Assembly (NCBI GenBank): GCA_048941015.1
Contig: JBHLNZ010000099.1
Coordinates: 1 to 10,006, forward strand
Source: Promethearchaeota archaeon
GTDB lineage: Archaea > Asgardarchaeota > Lokiarchaeia > Sigyniarchaeales > SOKP01
Direction: 5' to 3'
Length of the DNA stretch: 10,006 nt
The position numbers and the translations under genes were made by a program. Position 1 is the stretch's first letter; each line of letters opens with the position of its first letter. Under the pieces are notes generated by a model. The model saw nothing but the letters and a program-made list of their open reading frames with translations, was not told the origin of the DNA and ran no database searches. Below are positions 1,339 through 9,761 of the stretch, in pieces.

Positions 1339-2340
1339 TTACTTTTTAAGTAAGTTTTTGGCAACTTCGAAAGCATATTTATAATCGAATATTTTTAACC
1401 CCTTTGTATTAGCTGCTTCTTTAAGTATTTGAGCTTCTGAATCAGCTTTAAGTTTACCAAGAGCTAATGCCCCTATTGCAAAAATTCCAGGAAAAATCTC
1501 TTCATTCTTATACTTTGGTTTTATTCCTTCAATTCCATATGGAGGTACTAAATTTATATCAACAATTATTTTTTTTCCTTTTAATTTTTTAATAGATTCT
1601 TCTGATAAAATCTCTACTCCCGCTGCGGCTAAACACCAAATTATGTCAGCATCCTTACAAATATTTAACCTCTGTTCAGGATAAGGAGCAAAAATTCCTT
1701 TAATTTCGTTCGAATCTTGTTTAGCCTCATCACTTAATTCTTTTGCTAGATTACTAATAAATTTTTCATTTGATTTATCCCATGTTTCCACAATATAAGC
1801 TTTACAATGGTTTTTTGATGCTAGGACGGCTGCAATCCTTGCAACAGGCCCTGCTCCAAATATAACTACTTTTTTTCCTTCAATATTTGTAATATCATGC
1901 TTTTTGTTTAAAATGTCAATAGTCATTGCCACAACAGCAGAAGCAGTAGTATGAGATCCTCTGGGATCGATTATCACTGGACATTCGAAAGGCGGTATTA
2001 ATGATTTAATTACTTCTTTCGCAATTTTTTCTCCTTCATTAACATTTGATCCTCCTATGAAAAAAGTTGTGGGTGCATTTGGTTTACGTGAAAATATTGC
2101 ATCTTGAACTAGTTTTGGGACATACTGAGCACTCATTTTGCTAACTGGGACTACAATGTCAAAACCTGCATCATATGCCATATTAATATCAAATGGTGAA
2201 GCATTCTCATCTGTATCGAAAAAGTAGCAGATCTTATCCGTTGTATCTTTTTTTTTTATTATAATTGGTGAAAGTTCAATAATTGATTTTTTACCAAGTA
2301 TGTTTTCAATTATTGTTTCTGTCTTATTATTTTGGACCAT
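1339..2340 (-). CDS. mtdB: NAD(P)-dependent methylene-tetrahydromethanopterin (or -H4F) dehydrogenase, MtdA/MtdB family
   Basis: SPFDINMAYDAG, LVQDAIFSR, FIGG, DPRGSHTTASAVVA, Rossmann FGAGPV, AAAGVEIL, DINLVPPYGIEGI and GALALGKLK match MtdA/MtdB motifs in order. MtdA versus MtdB is not resolved by eye. Confidence 0.85.
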   Translation of the reverse strand: MVQNNKTETIIENILGKKSIIELSPIIIKKKDTTDKICYFFDTDENASPFDINMAYDAGFDIVVPVSKMSAQYVPKLVQDAIFSRKPNAPTTFFIGGSNVNEGEKIAKEVIKSLIPPFECPVIIDPRGSHTTASAVVAMTIDILNKKHDITNIEGKKVVIFGAGPVARIAAVLASKNHCKAYIVETWDKSNEKFISNLAKELSDEAKQDSNEIKGIFAPYPEQRLNICKDADIIWCLAAAGVEILSEESIKKLKGKKIIVDINLVPPYGIEGIKPKYKNEEIFPGIFAIGALALGKLKADSEAQILKEAANTKGLKIFDYKYAFEVAKNLLKK

Positions 2341-2384: not shown

Positions 2385-3098
2385 TTATTTAATTGTATCA
2401 ATTTCAACCTCTTTTTCTAATTCCTCGGTTTTGATAACCCTTTTAATTTTTACTTGTTCAGTTTCAACTCCAAGTTCTTCAGCTAATTTTTCAAGACCAT
2501 CAAAATGTCTTAAATCGCAAATAAATAGTGCTTTTAATTTTTTACCTTCTGCATTTTTAGCGAGATTCAAAATATTCATCATCATCCACGCTTCTCTTAT
2601 TTTATATCTGACTTCATCTTCTTGAGAATTATAATCTTTTTGTAAATATTCTTTCCATAAGATTAATCGTTGAAAAAGTTCGTCATCCTTGGGAATATGA
2701 CCATTTTTTTCAACTATTCCTTTTATACGATCTTCCAATTTTTGCAACATAGTTCTATGTTCATCTAAAGCCGCTGAAAGATAATATTCTGCATTTTCTG
2801 AAATATCCGCATGTTTGAAAGGAATCCCCTTCTGATCGAAAAGCTTTTTTATTGGATCATTTGAATTATAAGGCCAGTAATTTGGTTTTTCTTCTAAAGC
2901 AAGATTTGGTTTATATCTCTCTATAATTGTGTCAATTAGTTCTAAATATTCTTTTGAAATTAGAAGTAGGTTCCATACCAAATCTTCCTTTTTTTCTTGG
3001 GGTATTTCAAACCACCAATCAATTGAAAATTCACTTTCGATCATTATTAATTTTAAAATTTTTTCTTTTAATGGTTTTAATTCTAAAACTTCAGGCAT
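2385..3098 (-). CDS. Hypothetical protein, possibly TraB/GumN/Tiki (EreA/ChaN-like) superfamily
   Basis: 237-aa ORF with GAGGGG RBS. YKPNLALEE, a helical insert, and REAWMMMNI...LFICDLRHFDGLEKLAEELG resemble the TraB/GumN P-x-x-h-x-x-E and R...h-h-h-G-x-x-H-x-x-G-L motifs. The CDS is solid; the family call is tentative. Confidence 0.75.
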   Translation of the reverse strand: MPEVLELKPLKEKILKLIMIESEFSIDWWFEIPQEKKEDLVWNLLLISKEYLELIDTIIERYKPNLALEEKPNYWPYNSNDPIKKLFDQKGIPFKHADISENAEYYLSAALDEHRTMLQKLEDRIKGIVEKNGHIPKDDELFQRLILWKEYLQKDYNSQEDEVRYKIREAWMMMNILNLAKNAEGKKLKALFICDLRHFDGLEKLAEELGVETEQVKIKRVIKTEELEKEVEIDTIK

Positions 3099-3123: not shown

Positions 3124-3747
3124 TTAAAATATTATATTTTGAACAGTGTGTTTTTTATTATAAGATATGACTTTTACCCCTAAGTCTCTCAAGTTCTCAG
3201 TAACTTGAGGACAAATATCTTCACATATATCTTCCTGAATAAAGTGTATAAAAGATATTGTTTCAGTATAAATTTTACAATTACGCGCTAAATCTAACAT
3301 TTTTTTAACAATCCATTGTGGTCTCAATTTTAAACTCAAAAATATCTCTTTTTCTTGAATTTCTTCTGCTAGCATGTCAATCCAATTGCGTAATGAAATC
3401 ATCTTATATGATTCTTTATCATCTTCCTTCTCATACTCTTCATATAATTCATTCAATAATTCTTGTTTGTCTAAAATCTCTTCATATAAATAGCCCATTG
3501 CAAATTCTGGAATATCTACTTGATAATAAGGAATTTTAAGTTCATCTAATAACTGTGCAAATGATGTTTTACTAAATTCATTCAAATTTACCTGAAAATC
3601 TACGGTCACAAAATTGATATTCTTTCTTTTTAAAAACTCCTTCAATTTTGGGATATCAGGGTTCTGAAAGTATTTAATATTTTCTTTTGAAGTCATATAT
3701 GAGACAATTCTCTTATTTTTTATTGGCTTTAATTCCAATACTTCCAT
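3124..3747 (-). CDS. Hypothetical protein, diverged paralog of 2385-3098
   Basis: 207-aa ORF with GAGGTG RBS (3762-3757). Shares EVLELKP, IP----DI, W---L, R--W----L-LA-N and LGV with its neighbour. Confidence 0.8.
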   Translation of the reverse strand: MEVLELKPIKNKRIVSYMTSKENIKYFQNPDIPKLKEFLKRKNINFVTVDFQVNLNEFSKTSFAQLLDELKIPYYQVDIPEFAMGYLYEEILDKQELLNELYEEYEKEDDKESYKMISLRNWIDMLAEEIQEKEIFLSLKLRPQWIVKKMLDLARNCKIYTETISFIHFIQEDICEDICPQVTENLRDLGVKVISYNKKHTVQNIIF

Positions 3748-3856
3748 TCTTTTTTACACCTCTCTGCCTTCTATTTTTAAATTGATTTTATTTACCTGAG
3801 TAAAAGATCAAATAGCCAAAATATAAAGAATTTGACAAGAAAATTTTTGGAAAAAT

Positions 3857-3872
3857 TGATAATAATTATTGT
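3857..3872. promoter_or_regulatory. Operator-like box A (imperfect palindrome)
   Basis: TGATAATAATTATTGT. The core GATAATAA|TTATTGTC (3858-3873) pairs at 7 of 8 positions, and the box is 14/16 identical to the reverse complement of box B. Confidence 0.45.
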
Positions 3873-3964
3873 CTTTTTCTAGATCTCAACTAATTATATT
3901 ATTATACTGAAATTGAACATCTAATTACTGACCATGTAAATTGAGTGATCGAAAATAGACAAGA

Positions 3965-3972
3965 TTTATATA
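3965..3972 (+). promoter_or_regulatory. Putative archaeal TATA box for the HTH-hdrA-mvh operon
   Basis: TTTATATA preceded by a purine-rich BRE-like stretch (GAAAATAGACAAGA), about 100 bp upstream of the start at 4072. The AT-rich background limits specificity. Confidence 0.45.
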
Positions 3973-3977
3973 ATCGT

Positions 3978-3993
3978 ACAATAATATTTATCA
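3978..3993. promoter_or_regulatory. Operator-like box B (inverted copy of box A)
   Basis: ACAATAATATTTATCA (reverse complement TGATAAATATTATTGT), immediately downstream of the putative TATA box. Confidence 0.45.
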
Positions 3994-4071
3994 TGAAGAA
4001 AAAAAAAATTGTCAAAAATTAACTTTTAACAAATAAAATATTAATTAGAAAAAAGGAAGGTTTGAATAAAA

Positions 4072-6618
4072 TTGGATGTATATTCAATCTTGTCTCATCC
4101 TTTTAGAAGAAAAATTTTACTTATACTTGAAAAAGAAGGGTATATCCCTTACACTGATTTAATGGAAAAGCTTGGACTTGATGCAACTGGTCAATTAAAT
4201 TTTCACTTAAAAAAACTGGGCACCTTAATAAGCAAAGACAAAAAATCCTATTATTTAACCGAAGATGGTAAAATTATTTTAAGATTAATGAATCTAAATA
4301 AACGTATTTTATCAGGGGAAAAAATTGAATACCTAGATAAAAAAGGAAGTGAAATAAATAGGATAGGCGTAATAATCTGTAATTGTAACACTGAAATTTC
4401 AAATGTTATTAATATAAATGCCCTTCAAAATTATATTGAAAAAATAAATAATGTAGTTTCTGTTAAAATTTTTAATAATTTATGTTTAGAACGCAATTTT
4501 GAAAAAATCACAAATTGGATTAAAGAAAATTTTTTAAATAAAATAGTAATCGCAGCATGCTCTCCAAAAACTCATCAACATATCTTTGAAAGAATTTTTC
4601 AAGATGCAATTGATCGTGTAAATATTGAAATTGCTAATTTAAGAGAACAATGTTGTTGGGTTCATAATTTTAGTGAAAAGCAATATGATCCCCTCTTTAC
4701 CTTAAAGAAAGCACAGTTATTAATTGAAGCTGCTGTAGAAAGAGTAGCTCTTCAAAAAGAAATTAAAGTTAAAACAGTTGAAGTTGAAAAAAGCTGTGCA
4801 ATATTGGGAGGGGGAATTGCTGGAATGTCGTTGGCTTTAAACTTGTCAAGAACGGGAATAAAAGTCTATCTTATAGAAAAGTCCCCTACTCTAGGGGGAA
4901 AAGTCGCACGTTGGCATAGGATTTCAGATATGGGTGATTGTTCTATTTGCTTTATTTCAGAATTAATTGGAGAGATTGCTAAAGAAAAAAATATTGAAAT
5001 TTTAACTAATACTGAAATTGAGAATGTTTCAGGAGAAGTAGGAAATTTTGTTATTGATTTAAATAAAAAACCTCGTTATATCGATGAAAAAAAGTGTACT
5101 GGTTGTAAACAATGTATTGATATATGTGGTAAAGAAAAAGTTAATCAATTTGAATTTAATTTGAATAGAAGAAAAGTAATATATCTCCCTTTCCAAAATG
5201 CTTATCCTTATATTCCTTTAATTGATGAAAATGACGTCAATAATTGCCTTAATTGTAGAATTTGTGAGCGTGCATGTATTAATCAAGCAATAGATTTAAC
5301 TCAAAAACCTGAAAATATAAAAATAAAAGTTGGAGCAAAGGTAATCGCAATTGGTGCCGATCTTTATCCTGACTTAGATGAATATCAATATAATCCTCAA
5401 AACAATATAATTACTTCTGCTGAATTTGAAAGAATTTTATCCTCGGATGGAATTACTGAAGGAAAGCTAATTAGACTTTCAGATGGAAAAGTAGTTAAAA
5501 CTGTATCTATAATACAAGAAGTAGGCTCTAATAGTTATCAATGCGAGTACATGGACTTATTAGCCAAAAAGTACATTAATGAAATAAAGATAAAAAATCC
5601 CAATTGCGAAGTAAATGTATTTTATGATTTAAGTAAGTTGAAAGAAAAAAATGAGCTTTTACTAAAATCTACACATCCACGATATCTTTATGCTAATAAC
5701 GTTTCAATAGAAATAAGAGAAGATAATAATTATATCATAGCAGATTCTATAGAATTTCCAAGTGATTTAATTATTTTAAACGTTAAGTTGCAGCCCAACA
5801 AAGATTTAAAGCATCTTAGAAAAATTATGGATTTCACTCTTGATGAAAACGGTTTTATGAGTGAGGAAACATTAGCTTCTGGTATTTTTGGGGTTGGGAC
5901 TATATTTGGACCATTAAATTATCAATCTACAATATCTACTGCTAATAATGTAGCTCTTAAAATTATTTCACAACTTTCAAACGACTTTTTAAAATCTGAA
6001 TTCACAGGGATAGAAATCAATGAAGAAAAATGTGGATTATGCGGTCTTTGCATTCAATCTTGTCCTTTTGGCGCAATAAGTATTGAATCAGAAAAAATTA
6101 GCATTGATAAGTTTAAATGTAAAGGATGTGGAACTTGTGTTAGCGTTTGTCCTACGAGTGCAATTGAAATGAACATTGATACTTCACAAAAAATATTTAA
6201 AACAATCGAAATTTTCGCAAAATATAATAGAAACCCCAAAATACTTGCTTTTTGCTGTCAATCTTGTGGTTATGCAGCTGCTGATGATGCTGGCTTAAAA
6301 AAGATTCTCTATTCTCCAAATATGTTCATAATTAGAGTTCCTTGTACTGGAAGGGTAGATGCAAATTTCATTTTGAAAGCTTTAGAGGTAGGTTTTGATG
6401 GAGTAATGATTATTGGTTGCAATAAAGACTCTTGTAGATATATAGACGGAATCCAGAAAGTGCAAAGGAAAGTGAGATTATTAAAAAAGCTTTTAGGTCC
6501 AAAAATAGGCAATCGAATTATAGTTAAAAATTTAAATGCCGTAGAGGGTCATAAGTTTGCTAAGATTACAAACAAATTTTATAATATTTTAATGGAGGAA
6601 ATTAAAAATGAAACTTAA
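4072..6618 (+). CDS. hdrA: Fusion protein: ArsR-like winged HTH + divergent HdrA-like flavo-Fe-S protein + MvhD [2Fe-2S] domain
   Basis: aa 1-~80: LSHPFRRKILLIL...YTDLMEKLGL..TGQLNFHLKKL...YYLTEDG (wHTH). From nt 4360, HdrA motifs: RIGVIICNC, VIAACSP, ANLREQCCWVH, GGGIAG, EKSPTLGG, DCSIC, an inserted 2x CxxCxxCxxxC ferredoxin, EFERIL, and a C-terminal 2x CxxCxxCxxxCP. From nt 6238, MvhD motifs: KILAFCCQSCGYAAAD, IIRVPCTGRVD, DGVMIIGC---SCRY. TTG start. Confidence 0.93.
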   Translation: MDVYSILSHPFRRKILLILEKEGYIPYTDLMEKLGLDATGQLNFHLKKLGTLISKDKKSYYLTEDGKIILRLMNLNKRILSGEKIEYLDKKGSEINRIGVIICNCNTEISNVININALQNYIEKINNVVSVKIFNNLCLERNFEKITNWIKENFLNKIVIAACSPKTHQHIFERIFQDAIDRVNIEIANLREQCCWVHNFSEKQYDPLFTLKKAQLLIEAAVERVALQKEIKVKTVEVEKSCAILGGGIAGMSLALNLSRTGIKVYLIEKSPTLGGKVARWHRISDMGDCSICFISELIGEIAKEKNIEILTNTEIENVSGEVGNFVIDLNKKPRYIDEKKCTGCKQCIDICGKEKVNQFEFNLNRRKVIYLPFQNAYPYIPLIDENDVNNCLNCRICERACINQAIDLTQKPENIKIKVGAKVIAIGADLYPDLDEYQYNPQNNIITSAEFERILSSDGITEGKLIRLSDGKVVKTVSIIQEVGSNSYQCEYMDLLAKKYINEIKIKNPNCEVNVFYDLSKLKEKNELLLKSTHPRYLYANNVSIEIREDNNYIIADSIEFPSDLIILNVKLQPNKDLKHLRKIMDFTLDENGFMSEETLASGIFGVGTIFGPLNYQSTISTANNVALKIISQLSNDFLKSEFTGIEINEEKCGLCGLCIQSCPFGAISIESEKISIDKFKCKGCGTCVSVCPTSAIEMNIDTSQKIFKTIEIFAKYNRNPKILAFCCQSCGYAAADDAGLKKILYSPNMFIIRVPCTGRVDANFILKALEVGFDGVMIIGCNKDSCRYIDGIQKVQRKVRLLKKLLGPKIGNRIIVKNLNAVEGHKFAKITNKFYNILMEEIKNET

Positions 6619-7366
6619 ATTTCTTATAACTTCGTTAACATCTTGTAGTGGGTGTATTTCAGCATTGATGTCTTTAGATATCTTTCCTCAATTTATTGAA
6701 AGAACAAAACTAATTTACTTCCCTTTTATTTATGATGAATTAGATATAAATGATTGTGAGATTGCTTTAATTGAAGGATGTGTTTCTGAAAGTAAGCAAA
6801 TTGAATATCTTAAAAAAATAAGAAAATATGCTAAGAAAGTATATGCTTTAGGAACTTGTGCTGCTTTTGGAGGAATTTTAAGTCTTTCCAAAAAAAAGGA
6901 AGCACTCCCAATTTCAAAGTTTATTGAAGTTGACAATATCATTCCCGGTTGTCCTCCTCCTTCAACACTATTTGGTAACTGCTTAATTAATTTGGTAGAA
7001 AACAAGGATTTTAAGTTATCAACAAAAAATTTATGCTTTGACTGTCCTTATAAAAAGGATTTAGAGAAAAATTCAGAAATGTTGATTACAAAATTAAATC
7101 CTAACTATAATGAGATCGAAGATATTGGTAAGAATTCGTCTTGCTTTTTAAATCGTGGAATATTATGTTTAGGCCCAATTACACGTGAGGGCTGTGATCA
7201 CCAATGTATAAATCAAAATATGCCTTGTGAAGGATGTCTGGGGCCAGTTTCAAAAGACTTTACTTCTAATATGGTAAATTTTTTGAGTATGGTTAAGATT
7301 TCTAAAGATTTGGAGAGATATAAGGGCATTTATTACAGATTTTCTAAACCCATTTTAAAGAGGTGA
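6608..7366 (+). CDS. mvhG: [NiFe]-hydrogenase small subunit, MvhG-like (group 3c)
   Basis: SCSGC, EGCV, GTCAAFGGI, IPGCPP, CFDCP, CFLNRGILCLGPITREGC---C-----PCEGCLGP, YYRFS. GGAGG RBS at 6594-6598; overlaps the upstream gene by 11 nt. Confidence 0.92.
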   Translation: MKLKFLITSLTSCSGCISALMSLDIFPQFIERTKLIYFPFIYDELDINDCEIALIEGCVSESKQIEYLKKIRKYAKKVYALGTCAAFGGILSLSKKKEALPISKFIEVDNIIPGCPPPSTLFGNCLINLVENKDFKLSTKNLCFDCPYKKDLEKNSEMLITKLNPNYNEIEDIGKNSSCFLNRGILCLGPITREGCDHQCINQNMPCEGCLGPVSKDFTSNMVNFLSMVKISKDLERYKGIYYRFSKPILKR

Positions 7367-7371
7367 TATTT

Positions 7372-8673
7372 TTGGAAAAAGTAATTGAGGTATGTTCTAG
7401 AATTGAGGGTTATGCAGAAATTAATCTTTTTTTAAATAATGAACAAATTAAATATATTAAATTAGATACTACGGTTTTTCGTGGTTTTGAAACCATTTTA
7501 AAAGGCAAAAAGTTAATTGATATTCCAAAAATAGTATCACGAATATGTGGACTATGTCATGCCTCCCAAACTATTGCAAGTTGTAAAGCTATTGAGGATT
7601 TATATAATATTTTTCCAAGTCCTCAAGCAGTATTATTAAGAAAACTCTTATTATCCGCAGAATTAATAAAGTCACATTGTTTGCATTTCTTTTTCCAAAC
7701 TTTGCCAGATATGTTAAATATCTTCAATTTATGGAATACAACTAATGAAAACACTAACATTCTTCAATTTGATACTCAAACAACGACCATTATATATGAT
7801 TTAATTAAATTAGCTACAAAAATAAATGAAAGTTTTGGCGGAAGGGTTTTGCATTTAATTACACCGATTCCAGGAGGAATTGTGTATAAACCTAGTCAAA
7901 GAAATATAACATTATCTCAAAAAGCGCTTCAAAAAGCATTATTTAATTCAGAATATCTTATTAAGAAATTTATAAATCTCTTTTCAAAATTTAAGCCCCC
8001 TGAAGAATATAATCTAAATAGAATTTCATATTTAGGATTAACAAATAATGGAAGCTATGATAGATATAATGGGCTTTTAAGATTAAAACAAATTGATAAG
8101 CAACTTAAAGATTTTCCTATAAACCTTTATTCAGATTATTTTGATAAAGATGAAGAAATTATTGGGATTCAATTTAAATCTGAAATTGGAGAGAGGGTAT
8201 TGACAGGCCCAATATCAAGGTATAAAATAAACGAAAAATATAACCATGGGACTATTAAAGATTATCTTAATCAATTTGATAATCAATGGAAAAATTCTAT
8301 TCTATTTTGGAATTTTCTACAATTAATAGAAATAAATTCTGAAATTATGGAAAGCATTGAGATTTTAAAAGATAAGAAATTGAATAATAATAGTACTTAT
8401 CCTGTTCTAAAATCTTTAAAGAGCAAGGATGGAATTGGTGCTGTAGAAGCTCCAAGAGGAACATTAATACATCACTATCATCTGAATGAAAGTAATTTAG
8501 TAGATAGTGTGAAATTATATGTAGCAACTGAAATTAACATGCCTTTAATCAATGCAATGATTACCCATTATGCTCAGAAGTTGTATGAAAAGGAAAGTGT
8601 AGATACAGTTATGAAAAAAATCCAGATTATGATAAGATCATTTGATCCGTGTATATCTTGTGCAACTCATTAA
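7372..8673 (+). CDS. mvhA: [NiFe]-hydrogenase large subunit, MvhA-like, without a C-terminal extension
   Basis: SRIEG, RGFE, L1 RICGLCHASQ, SH--HFF, VEAPRGTLIHHY, VAT--N, and L2 RSFDPCISCATH followed by stop. The start is probably TTG 7372, because GAGGTGA (7360-7366) is a strong archaeal RBS 5 nt upstream; the track's GTG 7363 lies inside that RBS. Confidence 0.94.
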   Translation: MEKVIEVCSRIEGYAEINLFLNNEQIKYIKLDTTVFRGFETILKGKKLIDIPKIVSRICGLCHASQTIASCKAIEDLYNIFPSPQAVLLRKLLLSAELIKSHCLHFFFQTLPDMLNIFNLWNTTNENTNILQFDTQTTTIIYDLIKLATKINESFGGRVLHLITPIPGGIVYKPSQRNITLSQKALQKALFNSEYLIKKFINLFSKFKPPEEYNLNRISYLGLTNNGSYDRYNGLLRLKQIDKQLKDFPINLYSDYFDKDEEIIGIQFKSEIGERVLTGPISRYKINEKYNHGTIKDYLNQFDNQWKNSILFWNFLQLIEINSEIMESIEILKDKKLNNNSTYPVLKSLKSKDGIGAVEAPRGTLIHHYHLNESNLVDSVKLYVATEINMPLINAMITHYAQKLYEKESVDTVMKKIQIMIRSFDPCISCATH

Positions 8674-8726: not shown

Positions 8727-9761
8727 TTGGTGAATTTTTTTAATACAGATAATAATAAGGAAAATAGATCCAAAGAATTATGTGATATTTATTTACTTTA
8801 TTTTGATGAAACTCTTGGGCATATCCCTTTACTTATCCATCCAAATGATCAAGATAAAAATGATGAGGACATAATGCGCATCATAACATTTCATCCCATC
8901 TGGTTTCTGAATGAAAAAGAACAAGACTCTCTTAATCGTATAGACTTAGAATATAACAAAAAGATGTATTTTGCTAAAAAGTTCTATATAAAATCAGATA
9001 GGAAAAAAAGAAGAGCGGGACTTGAACAATCTGATATTGAGAAAATCGTTTTAATTATTGTTTTACCAACGGATTTAGACATTTTTGGGGGCGCACTCTT
9101 AAATAAAATGACAGAAATTATTAAGATCGAATACCAAAATACTTTATTCAAAATTATTGAATCTGAAATCGCAAAGCTTGAGGTTTTAAAAACAGTAAAA
9201 TTAAAAGAAATTATTAATAACGGAAATCTGGAACGAAATAAGCTAAAAAATACAATTACTATTTTTTGTAAAGAATATTTCTCATCGGTTATTAAACAGA
9301 AAGATGCAACAACTATTAAACTGCAAAAAGCGATTTCTTTTCTCTTATTAAAAGGAATTGATATTAGTTATATTACTAGTGATATAGAAAAGAATAATTT
9401 TTCAAATATCAGATTATTTGATCCAGAGAAAAAAACTCCTAACTTATTACAATCAAAAGAAAATTTTAAAATTTTAAACCAGACTATTGATGCGGATTTT
9501 GGGGAGTTTGAAATCTTAGTAAAAAATCAAAGTTCCAAGGATTTAATTAATGTTTATATAAAAATCACTTACGTTAAAGATTTTTTTGAAAAAGAAATTC
9601 TAAGTGAAAAAGTAGAAAAGTGGTTGTCACAGGAAGAATTAATGTTTATTACTCCTATCGTTCCTGGAATTTTAAATTACTTGTTTTTAGTTACAGAAGA
9701 AGATCAAAAGAAAATTAAATTTTCAAGAAAAATTAATTTTGAGAAAATAAGTATGATTTAG
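8727..9761 (+). CDS. Hypothetical protein: putative N-terminal longin/uDENN-like domain and C-terminal Ig/CARDB-like beta domain
   Basis: 344 aa, GGAGG RBS at 8716-8720. IYLLYFDETLGHIPLLIHP resembles the uDENN/longin F-D-x-x-x-G-x-x-x-x-x-x-P start. FEILVKNQSSKDLINVYIKITY resembles Ig-like strands. Domain calls are tentative. Confidence 0.75.
   Translation: MVNFFNTDNNKENRSKELCDIYLLYFDETLGHIPLLIHPNDQDKNDEDIMRIITFHPIWFLNEKEQDSLNRIDLEYNKKMYFAKKFYIKSDRKKRRAGLEQSDIEKIVLIIVLPTDLDIFGGALLNKMTEIIKIEYQNTLFKIIESEIAKLEVLKTVKLKEIINNGNLERNKLKNTITIFCKEYFSSVIKQKDATTIKLQKAISFLLLKGIDISYITSDIEKNNFSNIRLFDPEKKTPNLLQSKENFKILNQTIDADFGEFEILVKNQSSKDLINVYIKITYVKDFFEKEILSEKVEKWLSQEELMFITPIVPGILNYLFLVTEEDQKKIKFSRKINFEKISMI

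Follow-up and report, generated by a model that had tools for sequence, protein, structure and literature searches.

The 10,006-bp stretch analysed here (the window) is a whole contig (C53) of an AT-rich Asgard genome of 3.59 Mb that is 95% complete, and it carries an operon in which a winged-helix domain is fused to HdrA and MvhD and is followed by genes for the small and large subunits of an [NiFe] hydrogenase. An initial reading of the bare sequence (the original prediction) had proposed a tightly coupled unit of three genes, wHTH-HdrA-MvhD (wHTH, winged helix-turn-helix), MvhG and MvhA, and this was confirmed at the predicted positions by the open reading frames (ORFs) together with Pfam and NCBIfam matches. 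The features of the operon and of its promoter are the following.

3833-3874, minus strand: candidate operator O2, on the side of a facing operon; TGATAA-N6-TTGTCT (3857-3874) plus half-site TGACAA (3833-3838)
3965-3972, plus strand: TATA box TTTATATA of the hydrogenase operon; offset conserved in 34 distinct promoters
3976-4014, plus strand: candidate operator O1; GTACAA-N6-TTATCA (3976-3993) plus half-site TTGTCA (4009-4014)
4072-6618, plus strand: fusion gene, winged helix-HdrA-MvhD; ORF of 848 residues from a TTG start, with Pfam and NCBIfam matches; ArsR-like winged helix at residues 1-82, a linker, HdrA lacking the putative HA4 cluster at 97-715, MvhD at 721-841
4075-4317, plus strand: winged-helix domain DUF7347 with recognition helix TGQLNFHLKKL, from Pfam, a PDB profile and AlphaFold2 (AF2)/Foldseek
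5503-5607, plus strand: region of the thioredoxin-reductase-domain [4Fe-4S] cluster (HA4), four-Cys motif absent, from alignment to Methanothermobacter marburgensis HdrA (8RVU)
6608-7366, plus strand: MvhG/VhuG-type small subunit, 252 residues, with Cys for three Fe-S clusters and an Oxidored_q6/VhuG match
7363-8673, plus strand: MvhA-type [NiFe] large subunit, 436 residues from GTG, with a NiFeSe_Hases match

The fusion gene and the small-subunit gene overlap by 11 nt, and relatives share both this overlap and the order of the three genes. An alternative TTG start of the large subunit at 7372, which is used by gene callers elsewhere, leaves a 5-nt gap after the small-subunit gene. No stop codon interrupts the reading frame between the winged helix and HdrA; the start residue is common to the homologues, in which it is mostly ATG, and stops lie a few codons upstream of it. 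Genes for hdrB/hdrC, hyp proteins and a protease were not found in the window. Thus the absence of hdrB/hdrC and of a maturation protease beside the unit, as originally noted, is correct for the window but does not extend to the genome, in which a HycI-type protease is encoded on another contig (C37) and about 22 genes encode CCG domains.

The architecture is widespread. A search of 5.8 billion proteins yielded more than 120 full-length homologue clusters at 65-91% identity, nearly all with DUF7347, and a scan of one genome per species recovered 80 species-level Asgard loci in which residues 1-848 were matched. These loci carry the labels Promethearchaeota (Loki-type), Hel-, Hermod-, Hod-, Thor-, Odin- and Jordarchaeia, and share the same start. 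The fusion is not peculiar to one assembly; it is old and genuine, and no assembly artefact. The HTH+HdrA+MvhD architecture and its synteny with mvhGA are both conserved across Asgard lineages. Over 66 loci, the mean identity to the window falls from 77% in the winged helix through 71% in the whole fusion and 63% in the small subunit to 50% in the large subunit, which is the least conserved part of the operon in every one of the 66. In many lineages a further gene, frhB/fdhB-like (364-385 residues, PF04422/PF04432), lies directly upstream on the same strand (for example L012:6774-7931 and L013:6776-7921, and in L043, L053, L054, L090 and L091); its product may be a fourth, cofactor-binding subunit in these lineages. 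The present genome has 10 FrhB-like genes elsewhere.

Pfam matched the winged helix as DUF7347 at residues 2-71 (E 3.5e-10 with the whole protein, 7e-12 with the domain alone), and a 30-sequence profile run against the PDB matched the ArsR-family protein 1Y0U (E 1.7e-4). The AF2 model of the domain (predicted local distance difference test, pLDDT, 88.9) has the order a1-a2-a3-a4(recognition)-b-hairpin-a5. Its Foldseek neighbours are NolR bound to DNA, YodB, ArsR and CadC, with probability 1.0 and template-modelling (TM) scores of 0.57-0.72, no match with this model reaching E <= 0.001. We noted that the recognition helix has the same sequence, TGQLNFHL, throughout a 30-locus sample with Hel- and Jordarchaeia among its members, and that three outliers differ. 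When two copies were modelled together they formed a homodimer through a1 and a5 with an interface score (ipSAE) of 0.55, against 0.00 for the best control, a mark reached by 20 of 30 proteins solved as pairs and by 1 of 23 solved as single chains, although this score is that of a model and may mirror likeness to solved ArsR dimers. At least 83% of the contacts agreed between the model runs, the pLDDT of the partner was 84, and the recognition helices were left free. The models place the winged helix as an ArsR-type DNA-binding fold that is predicted to dimerise. No metal- or metalloid-sensing site was found, residues 1-96 being devoid of Cys; given this, any signal must come from the HdrA body.

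The fusion gene is parted from the facing operon by a divergent intergenic region of 324 nt, within which O2 is the mirror image of O1. A palindrome search in this AT-rich spacer alone was uninformative, and a comparison across loci was needed. In the aligned promoters the TATA box (TTTATATA/TTTAAATA) is followed after 3-4 bases by TGACAA-N6-TTATCA and, 15 bases further on, by TTGTCA. The exact 18-bp palindrome TGAYAA-N6-TTRTCA occurs in 90 copies in the 943 kb of 77 loci, against about one expected from composition, and 73 of these copies are situated in the 1.5 kb that precede the fusion gene. When one mismatch was allowed, a site was present in 73 of the 77 loci, two of the remaining four being shortened by contig ends. 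The most distant members, the Jordarchaeia, have a perfect palindrome. Where the frhB-like gene is first in the operon, the element is found about 80 nt upstream of that gene instead, which indicates that it marks the operon promoter. Within the 3.59-Mb genome the composite pattern occurs at O1 and O2 only (shuffled genomes gave 0-4 occurrences anywhere), and a genome-wide scan with a position weight matrix returned O1 as its single match, with a score of 38.3, the next best score of 15.9 being at the level of the shuffles. A site just past the TATA box covers the site of initiation, where archaeal repressors act. The arrangement suggests that O1 and O2 are bound by the winged helix of the fusion, and the expectation that a dimeric wHTH would suit a palindrome is in line with the predicted a1/a5 homodimer of ArsR type and with the conserved palindrome on its own promoter.

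Two further recurrent elements were seen in these promoters and loci. A motif, ATGATCA, precedes the TATA box by about 20 nt in most of the aligned promoters (in the window at about 3945-3951, as GTGATCG), and is also present in the promoter of metVF in this genome. A further palindrome recurs at positions of about -5.1 to -5.3 kb relative to the fusion gene, past the Cdc48 gene that stands at the distal end of the facing operon, in L016, L017, L020, L021, L025, L027, L028, L033, L037, L065, L069, L081, L089 and L092; the window stops short of that point.

The body of the fusion matched the NCBIfam profile of HdrA2, itself an HdrA-MvhD fusion, from end to end (residues 97-841 against profile positions 1-769 of 777), with the FlpD/MvhD domain at residues 724-840. 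The score of 583 bits is far under the curated cut-off of 1100 for that family. The best matches of the operon's proteins in the PDB are chains of methanogen Mvh-Hdr complexes (E 3e-111 for HdrA, 2e-24 for MvhD and 2e-46 for MvhA). In 120 homologues, the FAD (flavin adenine dinucleotide) glycine motif, the CxxC pair C290/C293 and five Fe-S sites of HdrA are kept: the Cys of the N-terminal domain, of the CxxC pair, of both inserted and both C-terminal ferredoxin motifs and of MvhD are all invariant or nearly so. By contrast, the four-Cys motif seen as CVGSRD...CSRVCC in M. marburgensis is absent from all 120, some lineages retaining one or two of its Cys as remnants. There are thus five sites and FAD, where HdrA2 and type Ia HdrA have six [4Fe-4S] sites. 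The thioredoxin-reductase domain of HdrA holds one cluster (PMC12054007), and by elimination the missing motif would be that of HA4. In current models this cluster hands the high-potential electron from the FAD to HdrBC, and MvhD feeds the FAD by way of the CxxC pair (PMC12350162, PMC13580544). The loss in HdrA therefore looks specific, in that the branch towards HdrBC appears to be cut and the remainder to be intact; the erosion of HdrA that had been proposed stands as regards the four-Cys motif of HA4, and fails as a description of the protein in general, since the FAD motifs, the CxxC pair and the five Fe-S sites are invariant. The Glu that positions the flavin Lys is also kept (AEFER), the Lys itself falling in an alignment gap in which it could not be placed. 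Two further residues, Cys194 (4651-4653) and Cys512 (5605-5607), are kept in 118 and 116 of the 120 homologues, respectively, and have no counterpart in methanogen HdrA; a replacement site or a redox-active pair is a possible role for them.

The large subunit has two CxxC pairs (RICGLC and DPCISC), and its best matches in the PDB are MvhA chains 9SW2_F and 5ODC_F (E 2e-46 as above); its match to the NCBIfam family VhuA (E 1.5e-43) is below the cut-off of that family. Its L1 motif, RICGLCHASQ (7540-7569), carries Gln69 at the position of the MvhA His, and the last residue of the protein is the His of L2, DPCISCATH (8644-8670), methanogen MvhA being about 24 residues longer. It therefore shows neither the L1 His nor the protease-removed C-terminal extension that typify group 3c. 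Both features extend over the family: Gln is found in 66 of 68 related loci, and the chain ends at the L2 His in 63 of 67. Jordarchaeia have His and a 7-residue extension, and Helarchaeota have Gln and an extension of 5-12 residues. Glu15, the arginine of the PRG motif and all four metal Cys are kept, and the His of RxEGH is kept in 52 of 67 loci and is Tyr in this window. In a FastTree phylogeny of 150 representatives and the locus sequences, midpoint-rooted for drawing only and holding no named references and none of group 2b, the large subunits that go with the fusion form one clade with 99% support, in agreement with the separate clade for which the original prediction had proposed a test. 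All five members of the clade checked for context adjoin a DUF7347-HdrA-MvhD gene. The Jordarchaeia branch outside a Gln clade of 100% support, and the forms without extension are nested inside that Gln clade.

A second large-subunit gene, belonging to a canonical hydrogenase cluster, is present in most genomes of the same genus, and in this genome contig C1 breaks off at the cluster's HdrB-like gene. The notion that the fusion-linked hydrogenase is the only one of the genome, for which searches with PF00374, PF02906 and PF00346 were otherwise empty, was rejected as an assembly artefact. The location of the canonical cluster is as follows.

G000 C1:64370-66210; L103:6120-11321; also in L105 and L107: canonical hydrogenase cluster, with a small subunit of 406 residues and a large subunit of 434 residues

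In the three genomes examined, this cluster consists of the small subunit, a large subunit with RLEGH and CGICPIPH, HdrC, HdrB and a gene of 262 codons' product length (262 aa), and it resembles the expressed NiFe hydrogenase of the cultured isolate MK-D1 (PMC7015854, supplementary table 4). No palindrome was found at the cluster in L103, L105 or L107. Between the same two same-genus genomes, large-subunit identity is 90% for the canonical hydrogenase and 54% for the one linked to the winged helix, a contrast that is descriptive and not a test, as the loci are interrelated and hydrogenase genes have perhaps been exchanged among lineages. The canonical large subunit ends in ...DPWIK without a second Cys pair, which suggests a split or selenocysteine-containing (VhuU-like) C-terminal piece.

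Taken together with their genomic setting, these genes probably encode an autoregulatory, DNA-binding complex of a hydrogenase and a flavoprotein. From the observed architecture and its conservation, the residue signatures, the conservation and uniqueness of the operator and the fold, we infer DNA binding by the winged helix, the sign of its effect, H2 as the signal and a conformational coupling between hydrogenase and DNA. The reading that we tentatively prefer, while placing it a little short of an even chance, is that the complex acts mainly as a one-component transcription regulator responsive to H2 or redox state. A dedicated sensor is suggested by the sensor-like residues, the missing branch to HdrBC, a large subunit that evolves fast beside a winged helix that evolves slowly, and the presence of a canonical hydrogenase alongside. 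With equal reserve we suggest that it is a direct hydrogenase-to-DNA sensor of H2, derived from group 3c, in which the active-site traits of bacterial sensors were acquired convergently and the flavin/Fe-S subunit is itself the transcription factor.

Such a regulator would probably be a soluble complex of composition (wHTH-HdrA-MvhD)2(MvhG-MvhA)2. H2 would be split at the sensor-like [NiFe] site, and electrons would pass through the three clusters of MvhG to the [2Fe-2S] cluster of the fused MvhD and on to the CxxC pair and FAD of HdrA. With the HA4 exit gone, charge would be held in the flavin/Fe-S module or leak slowly towards ferredoxin. The winged helix, being N-terminal, would sit beside the N-terminal domain of HdrA, which is part of the mobile arm in methanogen Mvh-Hdr, and a redox-linked change of this arm could alter the fit of the two winged helices to the 18-bp palindrome. 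Lying a few bases past the TATA box, the palindrome would cover the expected start site in the manner of an archaeal repressor site, and the mirrored palindromes would serve the hydrogenase operon and the facing operon alike.

Several observations weigh against this regulator-first interpretation. The sensor-type signatures on which it partly draws are real, family-wide and derived; however, the missing extension is a weak and non-diagnostic trait, because an unrelated large-subunit clade has His yet no extension, and large subunits without extension are known from groups 2b, 2d, 4c, 4e and 4g (PMC7294309). Similarly, Gln in place of an otherwise universal His marks regulatory hydrogenases but is seemingly unneeded for sensing (PMC5665086). 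All [NiFe] ligands, Glu15, the PRG arginine, the three small-subunit clusters, the FAD motifs and five HdrA clusters are kept, and with its catalytic and electron-transfer sites in place the complex could still turn over. In the outlier loci L142-L144 the half-site is arranged differently and the 18-bp palindrome is missing, and a factor other than the fusion could bind the operator. The regulon looks very small, since the only candidate outside the locus, metVF (see below), is not conserved. Finally, co-transcription with the frhB-like gene, seen in many lineages, would suit an enzyme that has a substrate subunit. The idea that the electron wire ends at a DNA-binding domain agrees with the architecture, the loss of HA4 and the operator, and less well with that gene.

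A rival reading is a bifunctional 'trigger enzyme', a working soluble hydrogenase whose winged helix tunes its own and the facing operon by redox load, as the proline dehydrogenase PutA does with its FAD and DNA-binding domain. Such an enzyme would carry out ferredoxin-linked H2 evolution or uptake, with the FrhB-like subunit serving a second cofactor in some lineages. We regard this as possible but unlikely. It accounts for the retention of the catalytic ligands and of every electron-transfer site except HA4, for an frhB-like gene inside the operon with the operator upstream of it, and for a detectable regulon that is essentially the enzyme's own locus; furthermore, the earliest-branching Jordarchaeia keep His and the extension though already fused to the winged helix, and in the literature these genes are classed as a group 3c hydrogenase (PMC11291895, PMC6478937). 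It sits poorly with the large subunit, whose conservation is the lowest in the operon and whose evolution is much faster than that of its canonical counterpart in the same genomes, with the sensor-type Gln, with the loss of HA4 and a Lys stabilising the bifurcating FAD that cannot be aligned, and with the presence of a canonical hydrogenase in relatives.

Winged helices can also be protein-protein modules. Hence the complex might be purely catalytic, with the winged helix as a structural or docking module and the palindrome as the site of a separate factor, and the outlier loci without the canonical palindrome are in line with this. We consider it improbable, as the nearest relatives of the domain in sequence and structure are all DNA-binding regulators, one of them solved on DNA. 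In the predicted dimer the recognition helices stay unobstructed; the sequence of this helix does not vary in the 30-locus sample, and no part of the operon is better conserved than the winged helix. Moreover, the palindrome is conserved in the neighbourhood and other DNA-binding genes are not. Very improbable, too, is a sensor of redox state and not of H2, in which the HdrA module reads the ferredoxin (or F420 or NAD(P)H) pool and the hydrogenase resets or vents it: the inserted and C-terminal ferredoxin domains, which dock ferredoxin in methanogen HdrA, are intact and FrhB-like partners occur in many lineages, but in every locus translational coupling ties the hydrogenase genes to the fusion gene, and a large-subunit clade co-extensive with the fusion points to H2 as an essential input.

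The regulator proposed here can be set against several known systems. In the MvhAGD-HdrABC complex of methanogens (PDB 5ODC, 8RVU, 9SW2) the wire is the same, running from NiFe over three Fe-S clusters and a [2Fe-2S] cluster to the CxxC pair and FAD; the Asgard complex differs in the added N-terminal winged helix, the fusion of MvhD to HdrA, the loss of HA4 and the absence of adjacent HdrBC genes, and its large subunit differs from MvhA in the change of the L1 His to Gln, the missing C-terminal extension and its fast evolution. The same HdrA-MvhD fusion is found in HdrA2 of Methanosarcina acetivorans HdrA2B2C2 (NF040770; type Ia HdrA, PMC12054007), which has neither the winged helix nor a hydrogenase partner but HdrB2C2, and which has the thioredoxin-reductase-domain cluster that the Asgard fusion, scoring below the cut-off of that family, lacks. 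The group 2b proteins HoxBC/HupUV share with the Asgard large subunit both the Gln in place of His and the lack of an extension (PMC5665086, PMC7294309), and the role proposed for the Asgard complex, H2 sensing with control of transcription, is the same. Unlike HoxBC with HoxJ/HoxA, the Asgard complex is archaeal, its large subunit forms a clade of its own, its nearest solved relatives being MvhA and other group 3 enzymes, and its output would be a DNA-binding domain on the complex itself; no histidine kinase was found in the conserved neighbourhood of the Asgard loci. In the bacterial flavoenzyme PutA (proline utilisation A), the redox state of FAD governs a fused DNA-binding domain at the protein's own promoter region. 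The concept is alike and the proteins are unrelated, PutA having a ribbon-helix-helix domain and responding to proline and not to H2.

The same three-gene cluster was described in Helarchaeota as a 'possible energy-transferring complex' (Seitz et al. 2019, PMC6478937; contigs L077 and L080), which the sections of that paper considered here interpret as a possibly membrane-associated redox complex; in those sections no mention of a DNA-binding domain, an operator or sensor-type residues was found. No paper bringing together Asgard, hydrogenase, winged helix and HdrA turned up in a literature search, and the original prediction likewise knew of no described system with this architecture. To our knowledge, the known H2 sensors are all bacterial and signal through kinases. 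If the preferred reading is correct, archaea would gain their first described H2 sensor, which is widespread in Asgard lineages and would represent a second, independent origin of a sensory [NiFe] hydrogenase, and it would bear on Asgard H2 syntrophy, which is central to models of the origin of eukaryotes. Should the complex bind DNA according to H2 or redox state, it would represent a new, direct coupling of a metalloenzyme to transcription, and the defined 18-bp operator and small regulon make the question testable. Calls of 'group 3c Mvh-Hdr' in Asgard metabolic reconstructions mix the canonical enzyme with a regulator-like complex.

The facing operon, on the other side of the divergent region, comprises the following genes.

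3124-3747, minus strand: Asgard-specific protein of 207 residues, encoded at the head of the facing operon and found in about 45 related loci
2385-3098, minus strand: protein of 237 residues, a weak paralogue of the 207-residue protein (BLASTP E 2e-5, 24% identity)
1339-2340, minus strand: Mtd-like gene with the N-terminal domain of methylene-tetrahydromethanopterin dehydrogenase (Pfam Mpt_N, E 1e-23)

This gene order with the Mtd-like gene is repeated in L014, and the palindrome stays with the gene of the 207-residue family where that gene is displaced from the hydrogenase genes. The 207-residue protein matched no Pfam or NCBIfam family and only Asgard-specific Atlas clusters, and its AF2 model (pLDDT 81.8) gave no Foldseek match in the PDB at E <= 0.001. 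The 237-residue protein, likewise Asgard-specific, has neither a family nor a Foldseek match in the PDB.

Candidate targets beyond this operon were also considered. An exact palindrome lies 102 nt upstream of metV-metF (methylene-tetrahydrofolate reductase; C91:21995-22012, L109), behind a TATA-like box. It is shared only with the closest relative and one other genome, and as it is conserved in only 3 of 30 relatives metVF was rejected as a member of the regulon. A genome-wide regulon drawn from the bare palindrome was rejected as well, the 7 exact sites being no enrichment over the 3-5 in shuffled genomes, and among the relatives of this genome a one-carbon regulon beyond the adjacent operon was not confirmed.

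Past the large-subunit gene, an ORF of 344 residues begins 53 nt downstream (8727-9761, plus strand). It has no family match, occupies the same position in the same-genus relative L104 and is absent from more distant loci. In Thor- and Hod-labelled loci the divergent neighbour of the hydrogenase operon is a FAD-binding ORF of 132-162 residues followed by an Fe-S ORF of 472-473 residues (L013:4324-6228, minus strand; similarly in L043, L048, L050, L053, L061, L082 and L091). The pair resembles a single HdrA-like gene interrupted by an in-frame stop, which is possibly a selenocysteine codon.

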